From the NCBI GenBank assembly GCA_963768425.1, contig CAVYHV010000008.1:64001-128000 (forward strand): a stretch of 64,000 bases of DNA, given 5' to 3'. The notes under the pieces are model-generated. The model was given only the letters and a program-made list of their open reading frames with translations, did no database searches and had not been told where the DNA came from. The first letter of the stretch is position 1; each line of letters opens with the position of its first letter. The position numbers and the translations under genes were made by a program. The DNA is from Candidatus Bathyarchaeota archaeon. GTDB taxonomy: Archaea > Thermoproteota > Bathyarchaeia > Bathyarchaeales > Bathycorpusculaceae. Positions 6,586 to 51,568 of this stretch are shown here, piece after piece.

Positions 6586-6693
6586 TTATTTTTTGACTTC
6601 TTTGGCTTTTTTCTCGCTTTTGGCATAGTACGCTTTCTTTTTCTTTTCCTCTTCAGCTTTAGTGGGTTTGGCTGGTTTTGCTGTTTTTGCCAT
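6586..6693 (-). CDS. 35-aa Lys/Ala-rich small protein
   Basis: MAKTAKPAKPTKAEEEKKKKAYYAKSEKKAKEVKK*, GAGG RBS upstream. Confidence 0.55.
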   Translation of the reverse strand: MAKTAKPAKPTKAEEEKKKKAYYAKSEKKAKEVKK

Positions 6694-6810
6694 TAAAATC
6701 CTCAAATAACTTAACCATAACTCGCATAAAAGATTTTCCAACTGCATAAGTGTCAGTTGAAAAGTTTATTTGTTTTTGCTTTTTTCTTTCCATATGCAGA
6801 AGGTTTTGTT

Positions 6811-7020
6811 ATGGAGAAGTTTGATGTAATCGTTGTGGGGTCAGGCTCGGGAATGCTTGTGGCTTCAGCGGTTGTTGGCTAAGGGCGAGGGCGGCTTTGG
6901 TTGAGTATTGAAAATGGAGGGCATTTGCATAAAACGTCGGTTGCTTTTCTTCAAAGATGTTGACTTGCTCAACAGACGTTATTGCCACGATTCAAACGGC
7001 GGGAAAACCAGGGGTCAATC
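6811..7020 (+). pseudogene. truncated, degraded pyridine nucleotide-disulfide oxidoreductase (dihydrolipoamide dehydrogenase-like) 5' remnant
   Basis: MEKFDVIVVGSGSG FAD motif, then stops and frameshifts around a decayed GIC..VGC..SK redox motif; no C-terminal domains. Confidence 0.7.
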
Positions 7021-7102
7021 AGTTTGACCTAAAACCTAAATTTTTAAATCTAAAAAGTTATATGCCCCTGCAGGCAACTGTTTCTAGCAGAGTTGTTTTG
7101 AT

Positions 7103-7387
7103 ATGAATATTTCTAAAGTTGCTGGCAAGAACAACAAGCACAGAGTTTTCGTTTACGCGTTAAGCACATGCGTATGGTGTAAACTAACAAAACAGTACCT
7201 GAACGAAAACAATATCGCGTACGAATACGTTGATGTTGACTTGGCAGAAGAGGAAGACAAACAGAAAATTCGCGACACAATTCAGAACATGGGCGGCATG
7301 CTGAGCTACCCCACCACGATTGTCGATGACAAAGTTGTGATTACCGGTTTCCGCAAGGACAAACTCAAAGAGGTTCTTGAAATTTGA
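7103..7387 (+). CDS. glutaredoxin-like protein (CVWC)
   Basis: CVWC active site, YPT cis-Pro, GF motif. Confidence 0.9.
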   Translation: MNISKVAGKNNKHRVFVYALSTCVWCKLTKQYLNENNIAYEYVDVDLAEEEDKQKIRDTIQNMGGMLSYPTTIVDDKVVITGFRKDKLKEVLEI

Positions 7388-7956
7388 TCACCCTTGAAGA
7401 AGTACGTAAAAGAGCCGAAGCAGACGCCAAAACCTATGGATACTTCCTTACTCCTCAACCGGATCTGCTTCAAGGTTTTCTTGAAGGATTAAAGACGAAT
7501 GAAGACCGCTACGGCTACCCGCTGTGTCCATGCAGACTCACCTCAAACAACTTCGAATTCGACCGCGATATCATCTGCCCCTGCGACTACCGTGACCCAG
7601 ACGTCGCACAATACGGCTCATGTTACTGCCGCCTCTACGTCAACAAACAAGTGTACGAAAGCAAAAACCTGCCAGAAGTCCCGGAGCGAAGACCACTAGA
7701 CAAGCAGGCAAGAGCATACGGATCTCAAACGGGCGCCTCGGCTAAACCGACAACAGCGGGAGTAGACCAAAAGAAACCCCCCACGGCATCGCCGGAAGTA
7801 GGGAAAGCTCAGCCTACAGTCAAAAAGAAGCTATGGTATTGCAAACAATGCGGTTACGTGGTTTTCAGAGAGGACCCGCCATACGTCTGCCCTATATGCA
7901 AGGCGAAAAAGGAATTATTCGCGGAAATAGAGAGTTCAGTGGAGTTCAAGGGCTAA
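7384..7956 (+). CDS. ferredoxin:thioredoxin/disulfide reductase catalytic subunit fused to a rubredoxin-like domain
   Basis: CPC, CPC, CYC motifs plus CKQCG/CPIC. Confidence 0.9.
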   Translation: MITLEEVRKRAEADAKTYGYFLTPQPDLLQGFLEGLKTNEDRYGYPLCPCRLTSNNFEFDRDIICPCDYRDPDVAQYGSCYCRLYVNKQVYESKNLPEVPERRPLDKQARAYGSQTGASAKPTTAGVDQKKPPTASPEVGKAQPTVKKKLWYCKQCGYVVFREDPPYVCPICKAKKELFAEIESSVEFKG

Positions 7957-42875: not shown

Positions 42876-44079
42876 ATGAAAGACGACTTAACTGTAATGA
42901 TGCTAAGCTGGGAGTTTCCGCCAAGGGTAATCGGAGGAATTTCACCTCACGTTTTCTTCTTATCAAAGAGCCTTGCCAAACAGGGTGTAAAAGTTTACGT
43001 TGTAACATGCGATTTTCCTGATGCGCCGGCACATGAAGTGATTGACGGCGTAGAAGTCTACCGTATCGACTCGTACAAGAACCCGTCGCCCGACTTCGCC
43101 ACATGGGTCTACTTGATGAACCTTAACATGCAAAAAGAAACAGCGGCGCTGACGAGAAAAATCGGGAACAAAATCGATCTGCTACACTGCCACGATTGGC
43201 TTGTCGCTAACGCGGGAATAGGACTCAAACATGTTTTTCGAAAGCCTCTTTTGGTAACGATGCATTCCACTGAAATCGGAAGAAGAGATGGGTTGCACAA
43301 TGACACTGAGAAAATGATTCATGAAACTGAAGCGTGGCTAACTTATGAAGCGTGGAAGGTTGTTTGCTGCAGCGACTACATGATTTCACATGTCAAATGG
43401 GCTTTCGGACTGCCCAACGACAAGCTGGTCATGGTTCCCAACGGCGTAAACACCAGATCTACAATACGACTCTCGAGGACTTGAAGGATTTCCGAAACAA
43501 GTTCGCGTTGCCTGAAGAAAAAATAGTTCTTTTCGTAGGCAGGCTGGTGTACGAAAAAGGCATCCACATATTAATCAACGCTGTTCCTAAGATCCTGGAA
43601 AAAGTCAACGCCAAATTCATAATTGTCGGCAGCGGCTACATGAAGGAGCAGCTCCTCAACATTGTACGTAGCATGAATCTTGAACACAAAGTTCTATTCG
43701 AGGGATTTCTTGACGAACAAACCCTGCTTAAACTCCAACAGTGCGCAGACGTGTCCGTCGTGCCATCACTATTTGAACCATTTGGGATTGTAGCGTTGGA
43801 AGCTATGGCTGCAAAAAGCCCCGTCGTCGCATCAGATACGGGCGGCCTATCCGAAATCATCCAGCATGATGTAACAGGAGTTAAAGTTTACCCAAACAAC
43901 CCAGATTCATTAGCATGGGGAATAAGCAAAGTCTTACTGGACGATAGTATAGGCACCGCATCAGAGAGAACGCTTACAGGAAAGTCTTGGAAATATACGA
44001 TTGGGAAAAAATCGCGCAGCAAACCAGACGCATATACGAGGGCGTTTTAGGCGAGTATTCAAACAGTTTCTGGGCTTAA
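42876..44079 (+). CDS. GT4-family glycosyltransferase (frameshifts ~43455, ~43948); its 3' end is the integration target
   Basis: SWEFPP..IGG, HDW, FVGRL..EKG, EPFGIVALEAM; true C-terminus YDWEKIAQQTRRIYEGVLGEYSNSFWA* ends at TAA 44077-44079. Confidence 0.9.
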
Positions 44080-44080
44080 A
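44049..44080 (+). repeat. left attachment site
   Basis: aggcgagtattcaaacagtttctgggcttaaa. Confidence 0.9.
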
Positions 44081-45048
44081 ACACCAGATACTCGCCTTAT
44101 AGAACAAATACCCAAAATAGCCAAAGTGCTTGAAAACTTGGAAGCATTAGGCAAAGAACAAACAACAAGAAAAACCTACAAGAAACTACTTTTAAGATTA
44201 GCCAACAAAACAGACCTAAACGAACCAAACCAAGTCAACCTTGCAATAGCACGATTCAAAAAATTCAACCGCGCAAACAGGCAAAGACACAAACAAAGAC
44301 GTAACCAATGCATACAAAGACCGACTAATATCAGCCTACAAAACCTACGTTGAATACTATAACATACAAAATTGGAAGCAGCCCTATTACACCCCAGAAG
44401 ATAAAGGCATCCAGCCACCAAATGAGGAAAAAGTAAAATTCTTAATAGCAACAGCCAAAGAACCCCTAAACATAAAAATAATGATAATAGGAGAAACAGG
44501 ACTAAGACCAAAAGAAGTCACAGGCACAAACGGACTCCAAGTAAACGACATCCACAAAGACACAAAAACATTAACCGCAAGAAGCCTGAAAGGATGCAAC
44601 CCAAGACCACCAATGCCAATAAGCGACGAACTACTAACAGCACTAAACAAACTACGTAACAAAACACAACCTAAAAGGCACAGACCTATTATTCACAGGG
44701 AATACTCAGAAACACTATCAAACCATTTTTACGACCACAAGATAACTTTTAGCGAAAAGACTAAACGACCCAACAATAACTCAAATAAGACTCTACGACA
44801 TCCGACACTACTACATAACAAAGAAAGTTAGAAAACTACAAAACATAGAAATAGTAAGACAAATCACAGGACACAAAAGACTAAACACACTACAAAGATA
44901 CATCCACATAGCACTAAACCAAACAGGCGAATGGATAATCAGAATAAACCAACGACAAAGAAAGAGTCAGATGCAACTCCTAAAGGAAGATTTTACTTAT
45001 GTAATAACAACACCAGACGGATACATGAAATTCAAAAAACCAAAATAA
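44051..45048 (+). CDS. int: tyrosine recombinase/integrase, C-terminal part (several frameshifts)
   Basis: ETGLRPKE (Arg), LKG (Lys), RLYDIRHYY, GHK, QRYIH (Tyr) across frames; frame open from the att site. Confidence 0.85.
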
Positions 45049-45134
45049 ACATACATTTTCTCAAACTACCGCGACAGAGAAAGTAAAGGAACGCAAATGC
45101 AAAGACTTAAAACTAAAGTGAAATCAAATAAGAT

Positions 45135-45637
45135 TTGATAAGAAAGAAGGCAATATCAACGAGTTTCTTTAATAGAAAAAAATGGAATGAAGACAGCTTC
45201 CAGTTATCATTAGGTGAAACTGAGCTATCTTTTGGAGATGAATTGAAAGGGACTCTTAGCATCAAGTCCGACGTTGAGTTCGATATTGAAAAGATTTGGG
45301 TTAGGCTAAGCTGTGAAGAAAGTCTTCGGGAAAAGACCACGCAATTCTCTACGATAACGATAATTTAGACCTTAGTGATGCCGTACATGTGAACGCTGGG
45401 TTTCATAAAGAATTTCCTTTTGTTCTCAAGCTGCCATCCGATGGAAGAGAAACATATCATAGTATTCACGAAAATGTGCGATGGTTAGTGGATGCATACA
45501 TCAAAGTAAAAGGAATGAAATATGCCATAAGTACTGAGGGAGGCGGCGAGATTCTTGTCACAAAGCCTGAAGATTCCAACTATACCCATAAAACAAGTCA
45601 AAGAGGTTGCGAGATACCAAACACCTTTGTCAAGTAA
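45135..45637 (+). CDS. arrestin-N/SpoOM-like beta-sandwich cargo protein (frameshifted; may be fused to the next ORF)
   Basis: GDELKGTL.I......IEKIWVRL.C.E...EFPF.LKLP......YHS....VRW.VDA. Confidence 0.5.
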
Positions 45638-46121
45638 GGCGACGAAATTGTATTGTCCTAATTGTGGAAAGGAAGTTCTGAATGAGGATGCTATTTTCTG
45701 CCCATATTGCTCCAAACCATTAAGGTCAGCAAAAAAGCAATCTGGTTTTCCAACTACCGCTGGCATATTGGCAATAATCGCTGCATGCATAACAATTGTG
45801 ATTGGTATTTTTGAATTCCTTAATTTTGCAAGTGATTATCCATATAATTACCGTTATTATATCCCCTATATATTTGATAATTTATTTGTTGGAATATGGA
45901 GTACTATTTGTTTCGCAGTTGGATTATCGGCTGCGATTTATTCAATAAAAAGAAAGCGTTTCGTATTATCAATAATTGGTAGCAGTCTGCTATTGGTTAC
46001 GGCTTTTTTGTATTCTATCATTACACAAGGCTTCGGATTGGTGTTTCTCGGAATACCCGTCTTGATTTTCTCAATTTTGAGTATTGTTTTTGTGGCAATC
46101 TCAAAAAGCGAATTCACATAG
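45555..46121 (+). CDS. zinc-ribbon + 4-TM membrane protein (cargo)
   Basis: YCPNCG......FCPYC followed by four hydrophobic helices. Confidence 0.7.
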   Translation: MSQSLKIPTIPIKQVKEVARYQTPLSSKATKLYCPNCGKEVLNEDAIFCPYCSKPLRSAKKQSGFPTTAGILAIIAACITIVIGIFEFLNFASDYPYNYRYYIPYIFDNLFVGIWSTICFAVGLSAAIYSIKRKRFVLSIIGSSLLLVTAFLYSIITQGFGLVFLGIPVLIFSILSIVFVAISKSEFT

Positions 46122-46257
46122 AACAAATCGTTGAATCATAGAATAACACCCGCTACGAAATTAAACTTAACGTTTAATCAGTACCTTCTTAGCCCTCTCA
46201 ACGATAAATTCTTTAAATCCGCATAACGAAGAAATAGCCTGAACATAGCAAGAAGAG

Positions 46258-46865
46258 ATGAAAATCAAAACGAACAAGAAGATTTTGTTTATCTTGGCGT
46301 TTCTTACAACCCTCGTAATAGGGATTGTGATAATCTCTCTTTCTTTTATTATTATTGGGAAATCGCTAACATAGCTGAATATGTCGCGTTATATGTGTCA
46401 GCTTCAACGGCAATTTTTACCTCAATCAAGACCTTGATTGAACCAGAAGCAAAAACTGAACCTATTCTAGAATCACCCCCCAACTTAAATCCGAGTGCCA
46501 AAAAAGCTATCGCTGGGTTTTTGTCAGGAAAGGTATTTGTCGATTTGTTGATAGAAAATGTGGGCTATTCTATAGCAAAAGATATTGAGGTGAAATGTCA
46601 CTTAATTCCAAATTCTTCCCGTGCATCTCAAGAATGATGGGTTTTTTAAACATTCAATGCTTGCACCAATTCCTAAAGACCCGCCTATCACGTTTTACCT
46701 TTGGAATTCGTTGATCTTGACAAACTGGCTAACCAAAAATTGGTCGTCGAAGCATCATTTTCAAATGAGGAAAACAAGAAGCAAGAAGTTTTGAGACTGG
46801 AAGTGGCATTTGACAAAGTAGAAGGTGAGTTAGCTCAGAGACTTGAAGACGAAGGGTTCCATTAA
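46258..46865 (+). CDS. membrane-anchored hypothetical protein (cargo, frameshifted)
   Basis: MKIKTNKKILFILAFL N-terminal TM, continuing through ORF 46395-46637 (IENVG.SIAKDI.V). Confidence 0.45.
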
Positions 46866-46901
46866 GTTAGAGCAAGAGCCAAAGGACTGGTGAACCCCAG
46901 G

Positions 46902-46961
46902 GATTTCGAATATCAATTATCAACATCAGATAATTGCATGCAGTTCAGAAAACCAAAATAA
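46902..46961 (+). repeat. second copy of the integrase 3' tail
   Basis: DFEYQLSTSDNCMQFRKPK* versus integrase DFTYVITTPDGYMKFKKPK* (44989-45048); 43/60 nt identical by hand count. Confidence 0.75.
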
Positions 46962-47202
46962 TCTTATTTTTTTCGTTCCGCTCCGCTGCGCTCCGCTTCA
47001 CTCCACCAAAAACAAGATAATTTCTATCAATTTCAAGCTTATTCAGAAATGAAACCGATCATCTTTCAATTGACTTCGGAATCAAGTCCTTCGGAACAAT
47101 CGACTCTTAATACAAACACTACTATCTAACGCAAACCGACGACAAACAAAACGCAGCTTACCATTTAAACTCTTAACGTAACAAATTCCGTAACCTAACT
47201 TC

Positions 47203-48501
47203 TCAACAAAACTCACATGGCAATTTATCATACCAACAAGGTTCTACCATAAGCATCAAACTCAAACCAACTCTATACCGAGAAGCATAGGGCTTACGCC
47301 TATCACTCTCAGCAACAACTTGCCACACCTCATAACCATCCTCAAGCGCAGGCATCCAGCTATCTCGCACATAATCAACCGCATACTTAGCCAACGCAAA
47401 AACCTTACTACCCAAATATTTAGCCTCAATTAACTCATGCTGACAAAGCGGACAGAGCATCTTACGTACCTCATAAGTAACTTTGAGCTTCCGATAACTA
47501 GTGCAACCGAACCAAGTAACAACAACGTGACGAATCCTGACAATGTTAACAGATAAAGCCTGACTCATTCAGAAACCCCCACCTTGATAGCACTATGATT
47601 TAACTGATACCAAGCCGTGCCAAAAACTGTAGCACGTTCAGCCTCGCATTTAATTATATATTTATTTTTCTTGTAAGAACCCCTGAACTCGCTCTTCAAA
47701 TCCACCGCAACCAGCACAAACAAACTCATTACCATGCTCCTCAATCAAGCGACCACTACGAGAACGAAAACGCCTAAGCGTTTTAGCGCAAGACCTACAC
47801 TTTCCGTACCCACCAAGAATATACGCAATACTATGTATGTGGGGGCTCCAAGTCCACCCAAACAAAACACCTTTTTCAAGAGACTCTTGATAATTCGCAT
47901 ACCTAAAACCATGAAAAATGAGACAACCGCCAACAACGCCAACCTCAGACAGAATTCTCTTTACTTTAATTCGGAACTTGTCGTTATTAAATTCAGCTAA
48001 ACCCAAATCGGAATAAGGCGGACTGATAACAATGTGCTGGGGAGCACCAAACCGCTTAGACGCAGCCTCTATACGCTGAGCGATATGATCAGCTTCACGC
48101 TTAGCCCAACCCGAAAAACAGCAAACAGGACACCTCGGATTATTGCACGAACGATGAATCTTACGCACAAAATTCTCGCCAGCGTGTGAGACACCATCCA
48201 AATTAGACTGACTATGAAGCTCAAGACGATTACAAATCATAAATTTCTGAAAAGTACCACAATAAGAATTAGTTTGAACCCCCTGACCAACCAACTCCCA
48301 AAAACCGTGATGAGCACTAACATCCTTCGGAGCTTCACAATCACCAAACGACTTAGCATAATCATAATAAAGCTTCTCAATATCCTTCTCAGATAACCCA
48401 GTAACGGAAGGAAAAACCGAAGCAGAAAAAACAAAAAACCCAGAAAAATGAAGTAAAAGGAACCGCAGGAAAATTATAACATCCAAAACAGGAAGCATCA
48501 A
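47203..48501 (-). CDS. rep: HUH-superfamily rolling-circle replication initiator-like protein (frameshifted)
   Basis: HIVISPP (motif I), WSPHIHSIAY (HUH), FGTAWYQLNH (Tyr, ~47595-47625), several CxxC motifs. Confidence 0.7.
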
Positions 48502-48740
48502 ATCACCACGCCCTTATCACACCGCCAAACAACACGGAAAACCTTGGATTTAGGATAATACCGAAACCTCACACGCTTACCACGAGAGCGGCAAGCACCA
48601 GAACCCGTGCCACAAATACAAAGAGGTAAACCATAACGAGTCCCAATTTGCTGAGCTAACTTGCATCTTTCTGCCCATTCCTTCTCAGCCTTGCCAACAA
48701 CAAGCGAACCAAGAACCAAAGGTTCTAACATATTAATCAA
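48498..48740 (-). CDS. small Cys-rich protein upstream of rep
   Basis: 80 aa, overlaps the rep ORF start, CxC...C...C. Confidence 0.5.
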   Translation of the reverse strand: MINMLEPLVLGSLVVGKAEKEWAERCKLAQQIGTRYGLPLCICGTGSGACRSRGKRVRFRYYPKSKVFRVVWRCDKGVVI

Positions 48741-48780
48741 AAAGAAAATGTGACCGCGAGTAAAGATATAGCTTCATAAG

Positions 48781-49362
48781 CTGGCAAAGCGATACATAAC
48801 CGCGACGGAGAAAACCTACACGAATACAGTAGGAATCTTAAACGGCAAACAAAAAATCCACAACAAACAAGCATTAACCCTACTTTATAATAACGAACCA
48901 CTTACCACATGGGAAATGGCTAAAAAATTAACAAATGTTGGAAACAGACGAAGTCTAAACTCCACTTTAAACAAATCAATGCGCAAACTCGAAACTAAAG
49001 GATACGTTTACCGAAAAGACGACGATAAATGGTATTTAAAACTCAAAGGCTTCATAGTAGTACTCCTAATTCAGCCAGAACCCAAAAAATGGAGCGATAA
49101 ATGGACAACAATTTTTATGAATAACCTAAAAACCAACGAAAACGACAGGATGATAGAATTCACCAATCTCGGTTTTAGCAACACCAAAATACAAGAAATA
49201 TCAAAAGCCATCAATAGATACTTAGGTGACTTTGAAAACTGGGTTGCATTCTCAAAAACCGTGGAAAAGAAAAAAATCGATATGGACAAAATCACAGACC
49301 AAACATTAGTACTCATGCTAGTATCAGAAAACCTTGACTTGTCTAAATTCTCAATAGCCTAA
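48781..49362 (+). CDS. winged-helix regulator of the element (start uncertain)
   Basis: Frame open upstream of ATG 48916; PLTTWEMAK...LNKSMRKLETKGYV...W.L..KG. Confidence 0.7.
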   Translation: MAKRYITATEKTYTNTVGILNGKQKIHNKQALTLLYNNEPLTTWEMAKKLTNVGNRRSLNSTLNKSMRKLETKGYVYRKDDDKWYLKLKGFIVVLLIQPEPKKWSDKWTTIFMNNLKTNENDRMIEFTNLGFSNTKIQEISKAINRYLGDFENWVAFSKTVEKKKIDMDKITDQTLVLMLVSENLDLSKFSIA

Positions 49363-49721
49363 ATTTCAATCCAATTCAAATTTCATCCCTAAATCCAGAC
49401 GATACGCTAAAAGCCGAACCTCAAGACAACCGTTCCGTCAAAATGACCACAAACTCCAAAAAATTATCAGGAATAAACAAGACCATAAAGACAGAGAACC
49501 GCATTTCCCCCAGAAGCAGTTCTCTACATTAAGGTCTATTATCCCCATAGTGAAAAGGACACAAAAATTAAGCAAACTAAATTTTTGAACCAAACCACTA
49601 TCACCCCACATTGACCCTTATCTGACTCACCACTTACCTACACCCGATTCACCCGCACCCCATCGAAATTTTTCGAGAAAAATTTAGTAAAGCCTGAGCA
49701 GACAAGAAACAAGTAATAAAC

Positions 49722-49830
49722 AGGGGACATATTCCCCTACCATACCTCTTCTAAACAGGGGACACATTCCCCTAACGTACCCTTTTTGGAAGCCAGTAAG
49801 GGGACAGATTCCCCTACCATACCCTTTCTA
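49722..49830. repeat. three ~31-bp iterons, each containing an AGGGGA-N5-TCCCCT palindrome
   Basis: Copies start at 49722, 49757 and 49799: aggggacaNattcccctaMcRtacc. Confidence 0.85.
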
Positions 49831-50122
49831 AGGAATATATGTATAAGAAAAAATTAGTGCTCACTCACCGCAAACGCAAATAGCCCGCCAATCGTACCAC
49901 ACCAATTTTTCACGCAATACAAAAACCCAAGCAATCTTTACTTTGTCAAAGAAGATTAAACAAAGAAAGATAAGCAGAAAGAAAAACAGAATAGACCAAT
50001 AACTGAAAAGACCAATTTATTAAGCAGATAACAACCTAAAAACAGACCATAAATAGAAAACAAAATTAGAAATAAGACTTATAACTAGCCAAACACACAA
50101 CATACTCCACAGATGAATTAAA

Positions 50123-50180
50123 ATGACAGCAACAACAGAACCCAATAAATTAGTAAGGCTTAAGGCGAGTATTCAAACAG
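50123..50180 (+). CDS. integrase N-terminal fragment
   Basis: ATG at 50123 reads MTATTEPNKLVRLKASIQT into the att core, in the same frame as the integrase C-part at 44051. Confidence 0.7.
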
Positions 50181-50194
50181 CTTTTGGGCGTAAA
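50163..50194 (+). repeat. right attachment site (displaced original host 3' end)
   Basis: aggcgagtattcaaacagcttttgggcgtaaa. Confidence 0.9.
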
Positions 50195-50203
50195 CCCCAA
50201 GCT

Positions 50204-51568
50204 CTATTTGCCTATGACCTTTACATTTTCAACTTGAATCCAAGGGGAAATCAGTTGCCCCATCTGACGCTCATTGCTGCCAATTAAGCTGATGTTTTTG
50301 AGTACTTCAAAGATGTTGCCGGCTAGCATGACGCCTCTACTGCAGTGGGTTATTTCGCCTTTCTTGATCTTCCAAGCAGGGGTTGCCACCACCGAGAATT
50401 CGCCGCTTACCGGGTTACTGCTGTGTGCACCTTGCAGATAATATACCATTAAACCGTCATCGATCTCACTTAGCATTTCATCTGCCGTTTTGTCTCCCGG
50501 CAGTATATGGAAGTTTGTTGTGTCGATGCTTGGGGTTGACAGGTATCCTGCGCGTCCCGCGTTTCCAGTGCTTTGTTTTCCTTCCTTTTTCGCTGAGTAA
50601 CTGTCATAAAGGAAACCGCGCAAAATGCCCTTCTCGATGATTGCTGTTTTCTGATGTGGCACGCCTTCACCGTCAAAAGCCCACGTTCGTAGGCCGCCTG
50701 CGAACAATCCGTCATCGTAAACTGTTAATTTATCCGAAGCTACTTTTTCGCCGATTTTCCCCTTAAACGCAGACTGATTTCGCTGCACACTATCCGCTCT
50801 CACTGCATTAATCAACGTGTAGGCGAGAAGATCCTGCAGCGCAAACTGAGTGAGAATTAGAGTGGTGCTTTTGGTTTCTACTGACTTAGTTTTTAACGCA
50901 GAAAGTGCCAGTTTCGCCGCTTCTTTGCCGACCCAAACTGGATCAACCTCATAGCTTCTTGATGCATTGAATTCGAAGCAAACGGGCGTAACAGAGATGC
51001 CTTCTTTTGCCACGGTGGCTATGCTGCATTCTACAACTGTGCCCTTGTCAAAACCCGAGATGCCGCTTGAGTTGGCGACAGCGTTAGAAATGTAAGCGCT
51101 GCCTATACCCCCTTCAATGGGGAACACTCTTTTGTCAACTTGCCCAGCAGCCTCAAGCATTGCTGCAGCGACTTCGACGAGTTCCCCTGACTCTAGTTCA
51201 ACAACCCGTTCATCAAAGGTTTTTTCAGGTGAAGCGTAAGTTTCACTTCCTGGCAGTCCTTTCCAGTCTGCGTCAGGTTTGCTTGCTCTTGCCGCGCTTA
51301 AAGCCCTTGAGATTACGTCTTCGACAGCGGTTGGGTCGTCGATTACGTTTGTGTAAGCAAAACCCATCGCTTTTTCAGCGACCACGCGGATGCCTAATCC
51401 TCGGTCAATGATCCTGTTAGTCTTGCTAATCTGGCCCAGTTCGATGCCGATGTTTGTTGCTTGTCCTTCGTAAACGTAAGCCTCCGCTTCAGAAGCTCCT
51501 TTCTTAAGGGCTTGACTCACCGTGTTTTCCGCTAAATCTACCATTACTTCTTTTTTAAGCACTGCCAC
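50204..51568 (-). CDS. pmbA: PmbA/TldE-family protein
   Basis: GLGIRV, FDGEG, STGNA, SGEFS; no HExxxH. Confidence 0.9.

Follow-up and report, generated by a model that had tools for sequence, protein, structure and literature searches.

What lies between a GT4-family glycosyltransferase gene and its convergent neighbour pmbA in a Bathyarchaeota genome, and how did it come to be there? We analysed a stretch of 64,000 nucleotides, hereafter the window, from Candidatus Bathyarchaeota archaeon (GCA_963768425.1; contig CAVYHV010000008.1, here C8, positions 64001-128000), whose genome comprises 2.96 Mb in 33 contigs and is 91% complete. An earlier note, made from the letters of the window alone, had placed a compact rolling-circle-type element in the 3' end of the glycosyltransferase gene. 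We find there a real, well-delimited and site-specifically integrated element. Its integrase is of the SSV type in layout and XerA-like in sequence, with no match to PF16795. Taken as a whole, the locus is probably best explained as an integrated small plasmid-like element of Bathyarchaeia, with a split integrase, a Rep-like protein accompanied by a Zn-ribbon protein, a probable winged-helix protein and hairpin iterons.

The element is bracketed by an imperfect direct repeat of 42 nt (44046-44087 and 50160-50201, 83% identity) enclosing 6,114 bp. Within it lies an exact 18-bp core, AGGCGAGTATTCAAACAG, at 44049-44066 and 50163-50180, with a start-to-start spacing of 6114; the repeats and the core described earlier are real. 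In the whole 2.96-Mb, 33-contig genome the core occurs only twice, on both occasions at an element border. The G+C fraction of the element is 0.35-0.42, against about 0.45-0.51 in the flanking windows. The left flank holds a GH57 gene, a short GT4-like gene and the GT4 target gene, the right flank the convergent pmbA followed by tldD.

Integration leaves the coding capacity of the target in place. The true GT4 C-terminus, which ends in YEGVLGEYSNSFWA and a stop, crosses the left attachment site (attL), and the frame closes with GVLGEYSNSFWA and a stop at 44079. The right attachment site (attR) encodes GEYSNSFWA and a stop, as attL does, by synonymous variants, with the pmbA stop directly after. 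Just after the core at attL, the window and the related loci L004 and L038 all read TTTCTGGGCTTAA, but the host-side versions found at attR vary. It follows that the last GT4 codons are supplied by a copy that the element carries, which restores the GT4 reading frame after insertion. In L004 the core reads AGGCGAGTACTCCAACAG, differing from that of the window at two synonymous GT4 positions, and its own attL and attR cores are identical. Since the cores differ between the two genomes and match within each, the attachment site of the element (attP) tracks the host allele. In the window GT4 is spread over three reading frames (indels near 43457 and 43948), and intact orthologues of 401 amino acids are found in L004 and L105.

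The state of the site before insertion can be read from relatives, as the earlier note had suggested. In a genome of the same genus (G016, locus L007) the GT4 stop is followed by 6 nt and the convergent pmbA stop, exactly as predicted. The GT4 3' end was matched in 75 of 81 genomes of the genus: only that of the window (G000) and G482 run through attL into int, and in the other 73 similarity ends at query positions 564-605, the GT4 stop being position 580. At the ten closest unoccupied loci of the genus, GT4 and pmbA are 16-92 bp apart in six and 968 bp apart in one, and three have no pmbA in the flank. Farther out, among GT4 loci from 30 genera of the family, four abut pmbA, 16 lie about 1 kb from it and 10 have none in the 1.5-kb flank; not one of these 30 loci has a Rep or Int match. 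The same element, with intact genes, occupies the same site in L004, L038 and L105. It measures 4,129 bp with both core copies in L004 (att spacing 4,111 bp) and 8,792 bp between att cores in L038. Contigs from four other metagenome runs bridge the junctions, attL in runs X1-X3 and attR in X2-X4. Integration into the GT4 3' end is thus borne out by the frame running through attL, the empty sites and the shared position in L004, L038 and L105; that same sharing and the bridging contigs show that the repeat is not an assembly artefact, which would have undone the earlier proposal.

The integrase gene, correctly recognised in the note, turned out to be distributed over several frames by about six private indels, and the first 19 codons are found at the opposite border (50123-50180). 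When 50180 is joined in silico to 44067, a single open frame runs from the ATG at 50123 across the core into the recombinase. The joined ends of L004 give an intact int open reading frame (ORF) of 343 amino acids, and the frame is likewise open across the joined ends of L005 and L042. In L038 the Int(C) orthologue is intact, at 304 amino acids, and the att contexts equal those of the window. The first four nucleotide differences between window and L004 on the 3' side of the core all fall in third positions and are synonymous in the int frame. Because attP lies inside its own 5' end, insertion splits the int gene; the open frame over the core of the joined ends therefore makes this an SSV-type "suicidal" integrase layout.

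By sequence, the enzyme is a tyrosine recombinase with the motif series RHYY...GH...RYIH. All four Ints searched match PF00589 (E-values 2.5e-12 in L038, 9.4e-21 in L005, 4.6e-21 in L042 and 2e-12 in L105), and none of the four matches PF16795 (Phage_integr_3), even at E <= 10. The nearest solved proteins are XerA structures (4a8e, E 1e-6; 5hxy, E 5e-5); SSV1 Int is not among the PDB matches at E <= 1. At 20 further Rep loci, convergent rep and int genes stand within 1-7 kb of each other in 17. An att repeat of at least 17 bp was found in 13 of these 17, and L091 is a fourteenth, its match reaching the edge of the range searched. For eight of the 13 relatives with a defined att, the int frame continues across att as far as an ATG upstream of it; in L097 the frame crosses the core without a stop, but the case is ambiguous.

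The second backbone gene encodes the Rep-like protein. The earlier note had read an HUH Rep-like gene in the ORF at 47662-48501; a rolling-circle-type Rep is plausible, and the ORF proved incomplete, running on past a frameshift in 47565-47744. None of its 70 homologues is named or carries a Pfam domain. Across 62 Rep sequences H135, H176, H200 and H202 are invariant (numbering of P0001), as are, fully or nearly, several N-terminal Cys and His residues, which probably form a Zn site. At least 90% of sequences share Y277, which is invariant in alignment A4. An AlphaFold model (predicted local distance difference test, pLDDT, 84) places the His residues on three successive strands, with H200 and H202 in the predicted strand 194-207 and Y277 in the predicted helix 271-280. 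Structural alignment of this model with 48,161 chains ranks the HUH Rep ORF119 of SIRV1 at the top (2x3g_A; Z 5.9, root-mean-square deviation 3.5, 104 residues), with Vientovirus Rep, MVM NS1 and AAV5 Rep at lower ranks. A model of another protein, a fused homologue with 43% identity to the first (pLDDT also 84), again gives ORF119 first (Z 4.9), then Vientovirus Rep (4.7, 4.6) and pMV158 RepB (4.3, 4.3), so that five of the top six rows are HUH Reps. The nearest named clusters in the ESM Atlas are Rep_1 (score 0.96, 200 of 256 shared features, 21 of 30 matches), which serves as a lead only; some of these clusters carry an IS91-type Zn-binding domain and some are mostly viral. The protein is plausibly a rolling-circle-type HUH Rep, and its family a candidate new branch of HUH nucleases. 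Like the known HUH Reps (Rep_1 of the pC194/pUB110 type, SIRV1 ORF119, pMV158 RepB), it has a predicted five-stranded sheet, an H-x-H strand and a following Tyr helix. Unlike them, it has no similarity to HUH Reps at the level of hidden Markov models, and it carries an N-terminal Cys/His-rich module, a Cys-rich insertion and a C-terminal Zn-ribbon domain, fused or encoded separately. Two further results were set aside: the sole match of the 62-sequence Rep profile among PDB sequences, TarG, is at chance level (E 1.2), and Pfam searches of 24 family members at E <= 10 returned scattered Zn-finger noise.

That separate gene is the small Cys protein (47203-47568), whose presence had been reported without its relation to Rep: in the distant homologues P0057-P0070 the corresponding part is fused to Rep (alignment A1). 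It has 101 amino acids in L004 and L038. Upstream of rep, orf80 is 100% identical at the amino-acid level in L037 and L038. The gene proposed as winged-helix does match MarR (E 8.5e-4) and the F-93 WHD (E 6.6e-3) in its 177-amino-acid L038 form; both matches lie below the curated cut-offs, and its homologues adjoin rep in L088 and L103. PADLOC returned no matches for the window's cargo, winged-helix protein or orf80. Pfam and PHROGs revealed no capsid, packaging, membrane-fusion or conjugation family among the element proteins, in keeping with the earlier failure to recognise a capsid or conjugation gene.

The non-coding DNA next to Int(N), previously put at about 800 bp with iterons, extends over 760 bp (49363-50122) and does contain three 33-nt repeats, at 49722-49831. 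Each forms a hairpin with a 6-bp stem, AGGGGA-5nt-TCCCCT (folding z -4.0 on the + strand, -2.7 on the - strand), and at the equivalent place in L042 there are two hairpin repeats that differ by compensatory changes. A different, GC-rich pair, GCTCCGCT, is kept 3' of the int stop or integrase remnant in the window, L004, L038 and L005, with AT-rich backbone around it. It shows no hairpin (z about 0) and may be a candidate Rep- or Int-binding iteron or a terminator. The backbone is also strand-asymmetric. Third codon positions of rep, cys and orf80 have 49-57% T and 22-35% G; those of int and the winged-helix gene, on the opposite strand, have 46-58% A and 27-32% C. One physical strand, that of the rep sense, is T+G-rich whatever the gene direction, in L038, L004 and L005 as well. 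Cargo and host genes have no such bias. We infer that it is a trace of long-term strand-asymmetric replication or of a single-stranded phase.

We now propose a course of events for this element, in which the integration steps can largely be read from the anatomy of the locus and the episomal form is postulated. The circle would replicate in rolling-circle or otherwise strand-asymmetric fashion, started by a two-part HUH-type Rep (core and Zn-ribbon subunit) acting on repeats of the non-coding regions. Its attP lies at about codons 14-27 of int and, read in a different frame, mimics the nine final codons of the host GT4. Recombination in the 18-bp core would put the circle between GT4 and pmbA, rebuild the GT4 C-terminus from element DNA and leave the original GT4 tail at attR. 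The same event would part Int(N), that is 19 codons and the promoter, at the right end from Int(C) at the left end, in the "suicidal" manner of SSV. Excision would then require a complete integrase from another copy, or on Int(C) translated from an internal start. The slot between the int stop and the replication module would take up variable cargo.

Table 1 Features of the integrated element and its borders, in window coordinates.
Feature	Position	Strand	Evidence and remarks
Host GT4 glycosyltransferase gene (target)	42876..44079	+	Pfam Glyco_transf_4 1e-27 and Glycos_transf_1 7e-44, on two pieces
attL	44046..44087		42-nt imperfect repeat, core 44049-44066; element DNA 3' of the core supplies the last four GT4 codons and stop
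Int(C), tyrosine integrase body	44067..45048	+	Catalytic ...LYDIRHYY...GHKRLNTLQRYIH; about six private indels in the window
Cargo gene: Zn-ribbon membrane protein, N-terminal domain without family	45135..46121	+	Pfam Zn_ribbon matches; three frames
Short cargo ORFs	46259..46865	+	46395-46637, 46621-46794, 46701-46865; no family matches
Remnant of a second integrase 3' end, 29 codons	46869..46958	+	tblastn, 70% identity with the C-terminus of L004 Int; bounds the cargo slot on the right
GC-rich direct repeats GCTCCGCT x2	46975..47010		One helical turn (~10 bp) apart, after a T-run
Small Cys (Zn-ribbon) protein	47203..47568	-	C-terminal domain of Rep in fused homologues; tail frameshifted at 47274
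Rep-like protein, unnamed family	47565..48501	-	Frameshift at 47685; N-terminal conserved Cys/His; predicted H-x-H strand and Tyr helix
80-amino-acid Cys-containing ORF (orf80)	48498..48740	-	Upstream of rep, overlapping; no family match
Winged-helix DNA-binding protein (probable)	48916..49362	+	Sub-threshold MarR and F-93 WHD matches
Non-coding region, 760 bp	49363..50122		Three 33-nt iterons; candidate origin or regulatory region, presumably with the int promoter
Int(N), start codon and first 19 int codons	50123..50180	+	MTATTEPNKLVRLKASIQT, ends in att core; joined-end frame
attR	50160..50201		Core 50163-50180; original GT4 3' end right of the core, then the pmbA stop
Host pmbA (convergent right flank), intact	50204..51568	-	Pfam PmbA_TldD domains, E 1.7e-73

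Which of these parts could be read otherwise? A chimeric assembly, in which repeat and insertion were both artefacts, would fit the unusual local indel density of the window copy, and is scarcely credible given both junctions in contigs of other runs, in two contigs of the Joint Genome Institute (L037, L038) and in two other genomes (L004, L105). That the integrase is a classical unsplit one, starting at GTG 44126 with attP just upstream of int and the junction frame incidental, strikes us as quite improbable. In its favour, the L038 protein from this start has 304 amino acids and covers a XerA-like profile from position 5 of 263; the NCBIfam XerA model, below its cut-off, aligns from residue 3 of the GTG-started Int(C), so the 40-amino-acid N-terminal extension may be dispensable. 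Int(N) is also short and poorly conserved in sequence between window and L004. In five of the 13 further relatives our script did not trace the int frame through att to an ATG: in L092, L093 and L098 the core is followed by a stop and then by an internal ATG, and L096 and L100 show no clear frame. Either the split layout is therefore not universal or those att calls are off. The proposed start itself, however, is not kept: GTG 44126 is GTT in L004 and a nearby TTG is TTA. L042, L084, L085, L089, L094 and L101 have no ATG between core and domain, and one upstream across the junction. The differences 3' of the core are silent in the int frame, and N-termini of the form M-x-x-T-T-E recur among Ints only about 27% identical.

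The role of Rep and the nature of the episome invite two more readings. The Rep-like protein might be a Zn-finger DNA-binding protein or a transposase-like nuclease, not an initiator, leaving an island that is purely integrative or replicates in another way. We hold this to be unlikely, and much of what counts for it also counts against the plasmid-like element as a whole. No sequence link to any Rep family was found in Pfam, PHROGs, NCBIfam or PDB sequences; Foldseek with the Rep model against the PDB gave nothing at E <= 1e-3; and all fold matches are weak, with Z below 6, values of 4-6 lying within the range that the tool calls common. As further points against the plasmid-like element, we identified no nick site or origin in it, and L004 lacks conserved hairpin iterons, having only one imperfect inverted repeat there. 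No episomal contig was recovered, the genome hits all being on host-assembly contigs, several of hundreds of kb to Mb; terminal overlap, a sign of circularity, is absent from all 18 related contigs. The circle junction from 50180 to 44067, which the earlier note had proposed to look for, and empty-site joints did not appear in the contigs of the four runs, a weak test as these are assembled contigs of related strains. The private frameshifts in int, rep, cys, cargo and even GT4 of the window copy likewise count against the plasmid-like element. Set against the non-initiator reading are the HUH Reps that come first among 48,161 chains with two models 43% identical to each other, the His/His/His-x-His/Tyr set on the expected strands and helix, the ESM features pointing towards Rep_1, and a strand asymmetry confined to the backbone. 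A provirus or satellite of a small, possibly single-stranded DNA (ssDNA), archaeal virus, with orf80, the Cys protein or orf69/orf110 as a structural protein and with Rep producing the single-stranded genomes to be packaged, appears to us rather improbable. Long phases as single strands would give rise to a T+G versus A+C bias at synonymous sites such as the one seen, several conserved small ORFs have no family, the closest folds are viral HUH Reps, and some of the nearest ESM Atlas Rep_1 clusters are mostly viral. Yet no capsid, packaging or membrane-fusion family was found, and a viral contig collection scanned with the Rep alignment held no relative among 55 candidate stretches. The smallest member, moreover, spans 4.1 kb and has only int, rep, cys and one 110-amino-acid ORF. 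An integrated small plasmid-like element thus remains our preferred explanation; the cryptic integrative plasmid of the earlier note agrees with it as to an integrated element with a plausible Rep, and overlooked the splitting of the integrase, the many frameshifts, the single broken cargo gene and how Rep and the Cys protein are connected.

The window copy itself is probably no longer mobile, or locally mis-assembled. Compared with L004, L038, L037, L105 and the contigs of the four runs, it has about a dozen private indels of 1 or 2 bases between 43457 and 47685: six in int (44271, 44649, 44700, 44743, 44940 and 44972), two in GT4 (43457 and 43948), one in the cys gene (47274) and one in rep (47685). 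The cargo gene shows two frame changes relative to a paralogue on contig C9. Most private indels lie outside long homopolymers. In 4.9 kb of host DNA on the right there are three indels relative to L037, none of them within the coding sequences of pmbA, tldD and the ORF after these. For a TAA lying in frame in int, a nonsense mutation was considered and was ruled out by comparison with L004, L038 and L105: a one-base insertion shifts the frame. Decay is plausible because split int genes are expected to decay, and assembly error is plausible because two indels hit the conserved host GT4; we regard the two as about evenly balanced.

The cargo slot extends from the int stop (45048) to a remnant of a second integrase (46869-46958). 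Integrase-gene ends of about 29 codons thereby flank the cargo, seen as repeat D1 between 44989-45059 and 46902-46972; a similar remnant exists in L038, and similarity to L038, L037 and L004 resumes at 46945 / 46870. It seems that cargo is gained when related elements recombine at the 3' end of int. Slot contents differ: that of L004 is almost empty, this smallest element having int, rep, cys, one 110-amino-acid ORF and about 1.5 kb without an ORF of at least 70 amino acids, and that of L038 codes for a type IIG restriction-modification enzyme together with a DUF3800 protein. In the window, 45187-46873 is not covered by contigs of the four runs because those strains carry other cargo. The three cargo ORFs of the earlier note (45135-45368, 45389-45637 and 45555-46121) are pieces of one broken gene, as its intact 250-amino-acid paralogue in the same genome demonstrates (G000 C9:277507-278256, L002 1503-2252; 82-83% nucleotide identity). 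This paralogue, about 600 bp from the end of contig C9, was the only result when the genome was scanned for spacer-like or other matches to the element. Ahead of the short cargo ORFs, our reading of the sequence suggests a possible small membrane ORF. In L005 a 294-amino-acid ORF (6613-7497) occupies the interval from rep to the att copy, a stretch that is purely non-coding in other elements; on our reading it resembles a transposase gene that was inserted there.

How widespread is the family? We scanned 401 genomes of the class, counting that of the window. The Rep family occurs in 31 of them, all in three families of one order. With the window's genome left aside, it is present in 24 of 103 (f1), 5 of 18 (f5) and 1 of 11 (f4) genomes, and in none of 268 from the other families sampled. 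The window's genus has it in 14 of 40 genomes, and several genomes contain two to six Rep matches, some degraded. The named relatives are metagenome-assembled genomes of Bathyarchaeota/Bathyarchaeia, the host is a wetland or peat archaeon, and the elements of the family range in size from 4.1 to 8.8 kb.

Targets vary within the family. The window, L004, L038 and L105 all use the GT4 3' end; L005 carries its att, of 17 bp, midway along a putative RidA-like gene, so named from its translation, and L042 one of 17 bp in a gene of the YgbA_NO family. A protein gene as the host attachment site (attB) had been taken as a trait of the family, which does not hold: the 13 further relatives with defined att use tRNA, RNase P RNA, a shared 23-nt site and tRNA-half-like sites. 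Four loci target tRNA-Ala(CGC) and one tRNA-Thr(GGT), and two relatives have att sites resembling tRNA 5' halves. The 3' end of archaeal RNase P RNA is the target in L096 (8749-9057, Rfam 194 bits) and, by a weak match (E 0.013), in L084 (7265-7424). Five loci (L091, L092, L093, L097 and L098) share the 23-nt target CTGGGACGGCGACATCATCCCCC, in a short, non-coding-looking locus; a C/D-box sRNA there is unconfirmed, the best Rfam match being to a C/D-box family at chance level (E 0.99). It is conceivable, and we say so tentatively, that we are dealing with an undescribed family, common in one Bathyarchaeia order, of integrative plasmids with rolling-circle replication or of ssDNA elements lacking a capsid, whose XerA-like integrases would have acquired the self-splitting layout independently of the SSV/pTN3/pT26-2 clade and which would retarget freely, between tRNA, RNase P RNA, a small-RNA-like locus and protein genes, through a frame-shifted mimic of the target in the int 5' end.

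The comparison with known systems is closest for the integrase. SSV-type integrases carry the recombination site in their own gene (PMC8371274). As in SSV1/SSV2, pTN3 and pT26-2 elements, attP here lies in the int ORF, int(N) and int(C) are parted and the att site is translated; the enzyme is a tyrosine recombinase, and close relatives switch targets (PMC8371274, PMC7253208). In contrast, the signature of that clade, PF16795 according to PMC8371274, is absent from the four Ints searched, and the nearest solved proteins are XerA; Int(N) is no longer than 19 codons, the host belongs to Bathyarchaeia of wetland or peat, and the target at GT4 is a protein gene. The pT26-2-type enzymes surveyed all have tRNA gene targets (PMC7253208). 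Split integrases have been characterised in Sulfolobales, Thermococcales, Archaeoglobales and a few Methanosarcinales (PMC8371274, PMC7253208), and are treated as monophyletic and mainly a trait of hyperthermophiles (PMC8371274). A XerA-like split integrase from cold wetlands, with protein-coding and RNase P targets, bears on the origin of the layout and on target switching.

Thaumarchaeota offer the other point of reference. There, 14 of 68 elements reside in 3'-distal parts of protein genes with a stop supplied by the element (PMC6563490), so that a protein gene as attB is not new for archaea. Among them, NitEve-E3 has a split SSV1-like integrase and NitAQ6f-E2 a rolling-circle Rep (PMC6563490). 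Like the cryptic Thaumarchaeota elements, whose replication modules vary, ours are small, integrase-bearing and without viral or conjugative hallmark genes (PMC6563490). They differ in host class, in having an unnamed Rep family and not the SNJ1-type Rep, and in combining split integrase and Rep in a conserved backbone, with rep and int together at 17 of 20 further loci (compared with PMC6563490). We found no description of such elements in Bathyarchaeia in the literature covered, which included few subscription journals and no supplements. A paper on the Bathyarchaeia virome reports four virus families, and the word "rolling" is absent from its accessible text (PMC10541130). With little in print on the Bathyarchaeia mobilome, the family would add a compact backbone of split integrase and new Rep, frequent in one order, with defence or membrane cargo.

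A few observations on the attachment sites complete the picture. RNase P RNA is an unusual integration target. An element-side arm just 5' of every att core, resembling AAATTACTAAGGCTnAAGG, is conserved (50140-50162 in the window; attR-side contexts of L084-L102), and is kept despite different targets and Ints of only about 27% identity. The arm is probably an integrase-binding half-site. The cores of elements that target protein genes begin with AGGC in the int sense.

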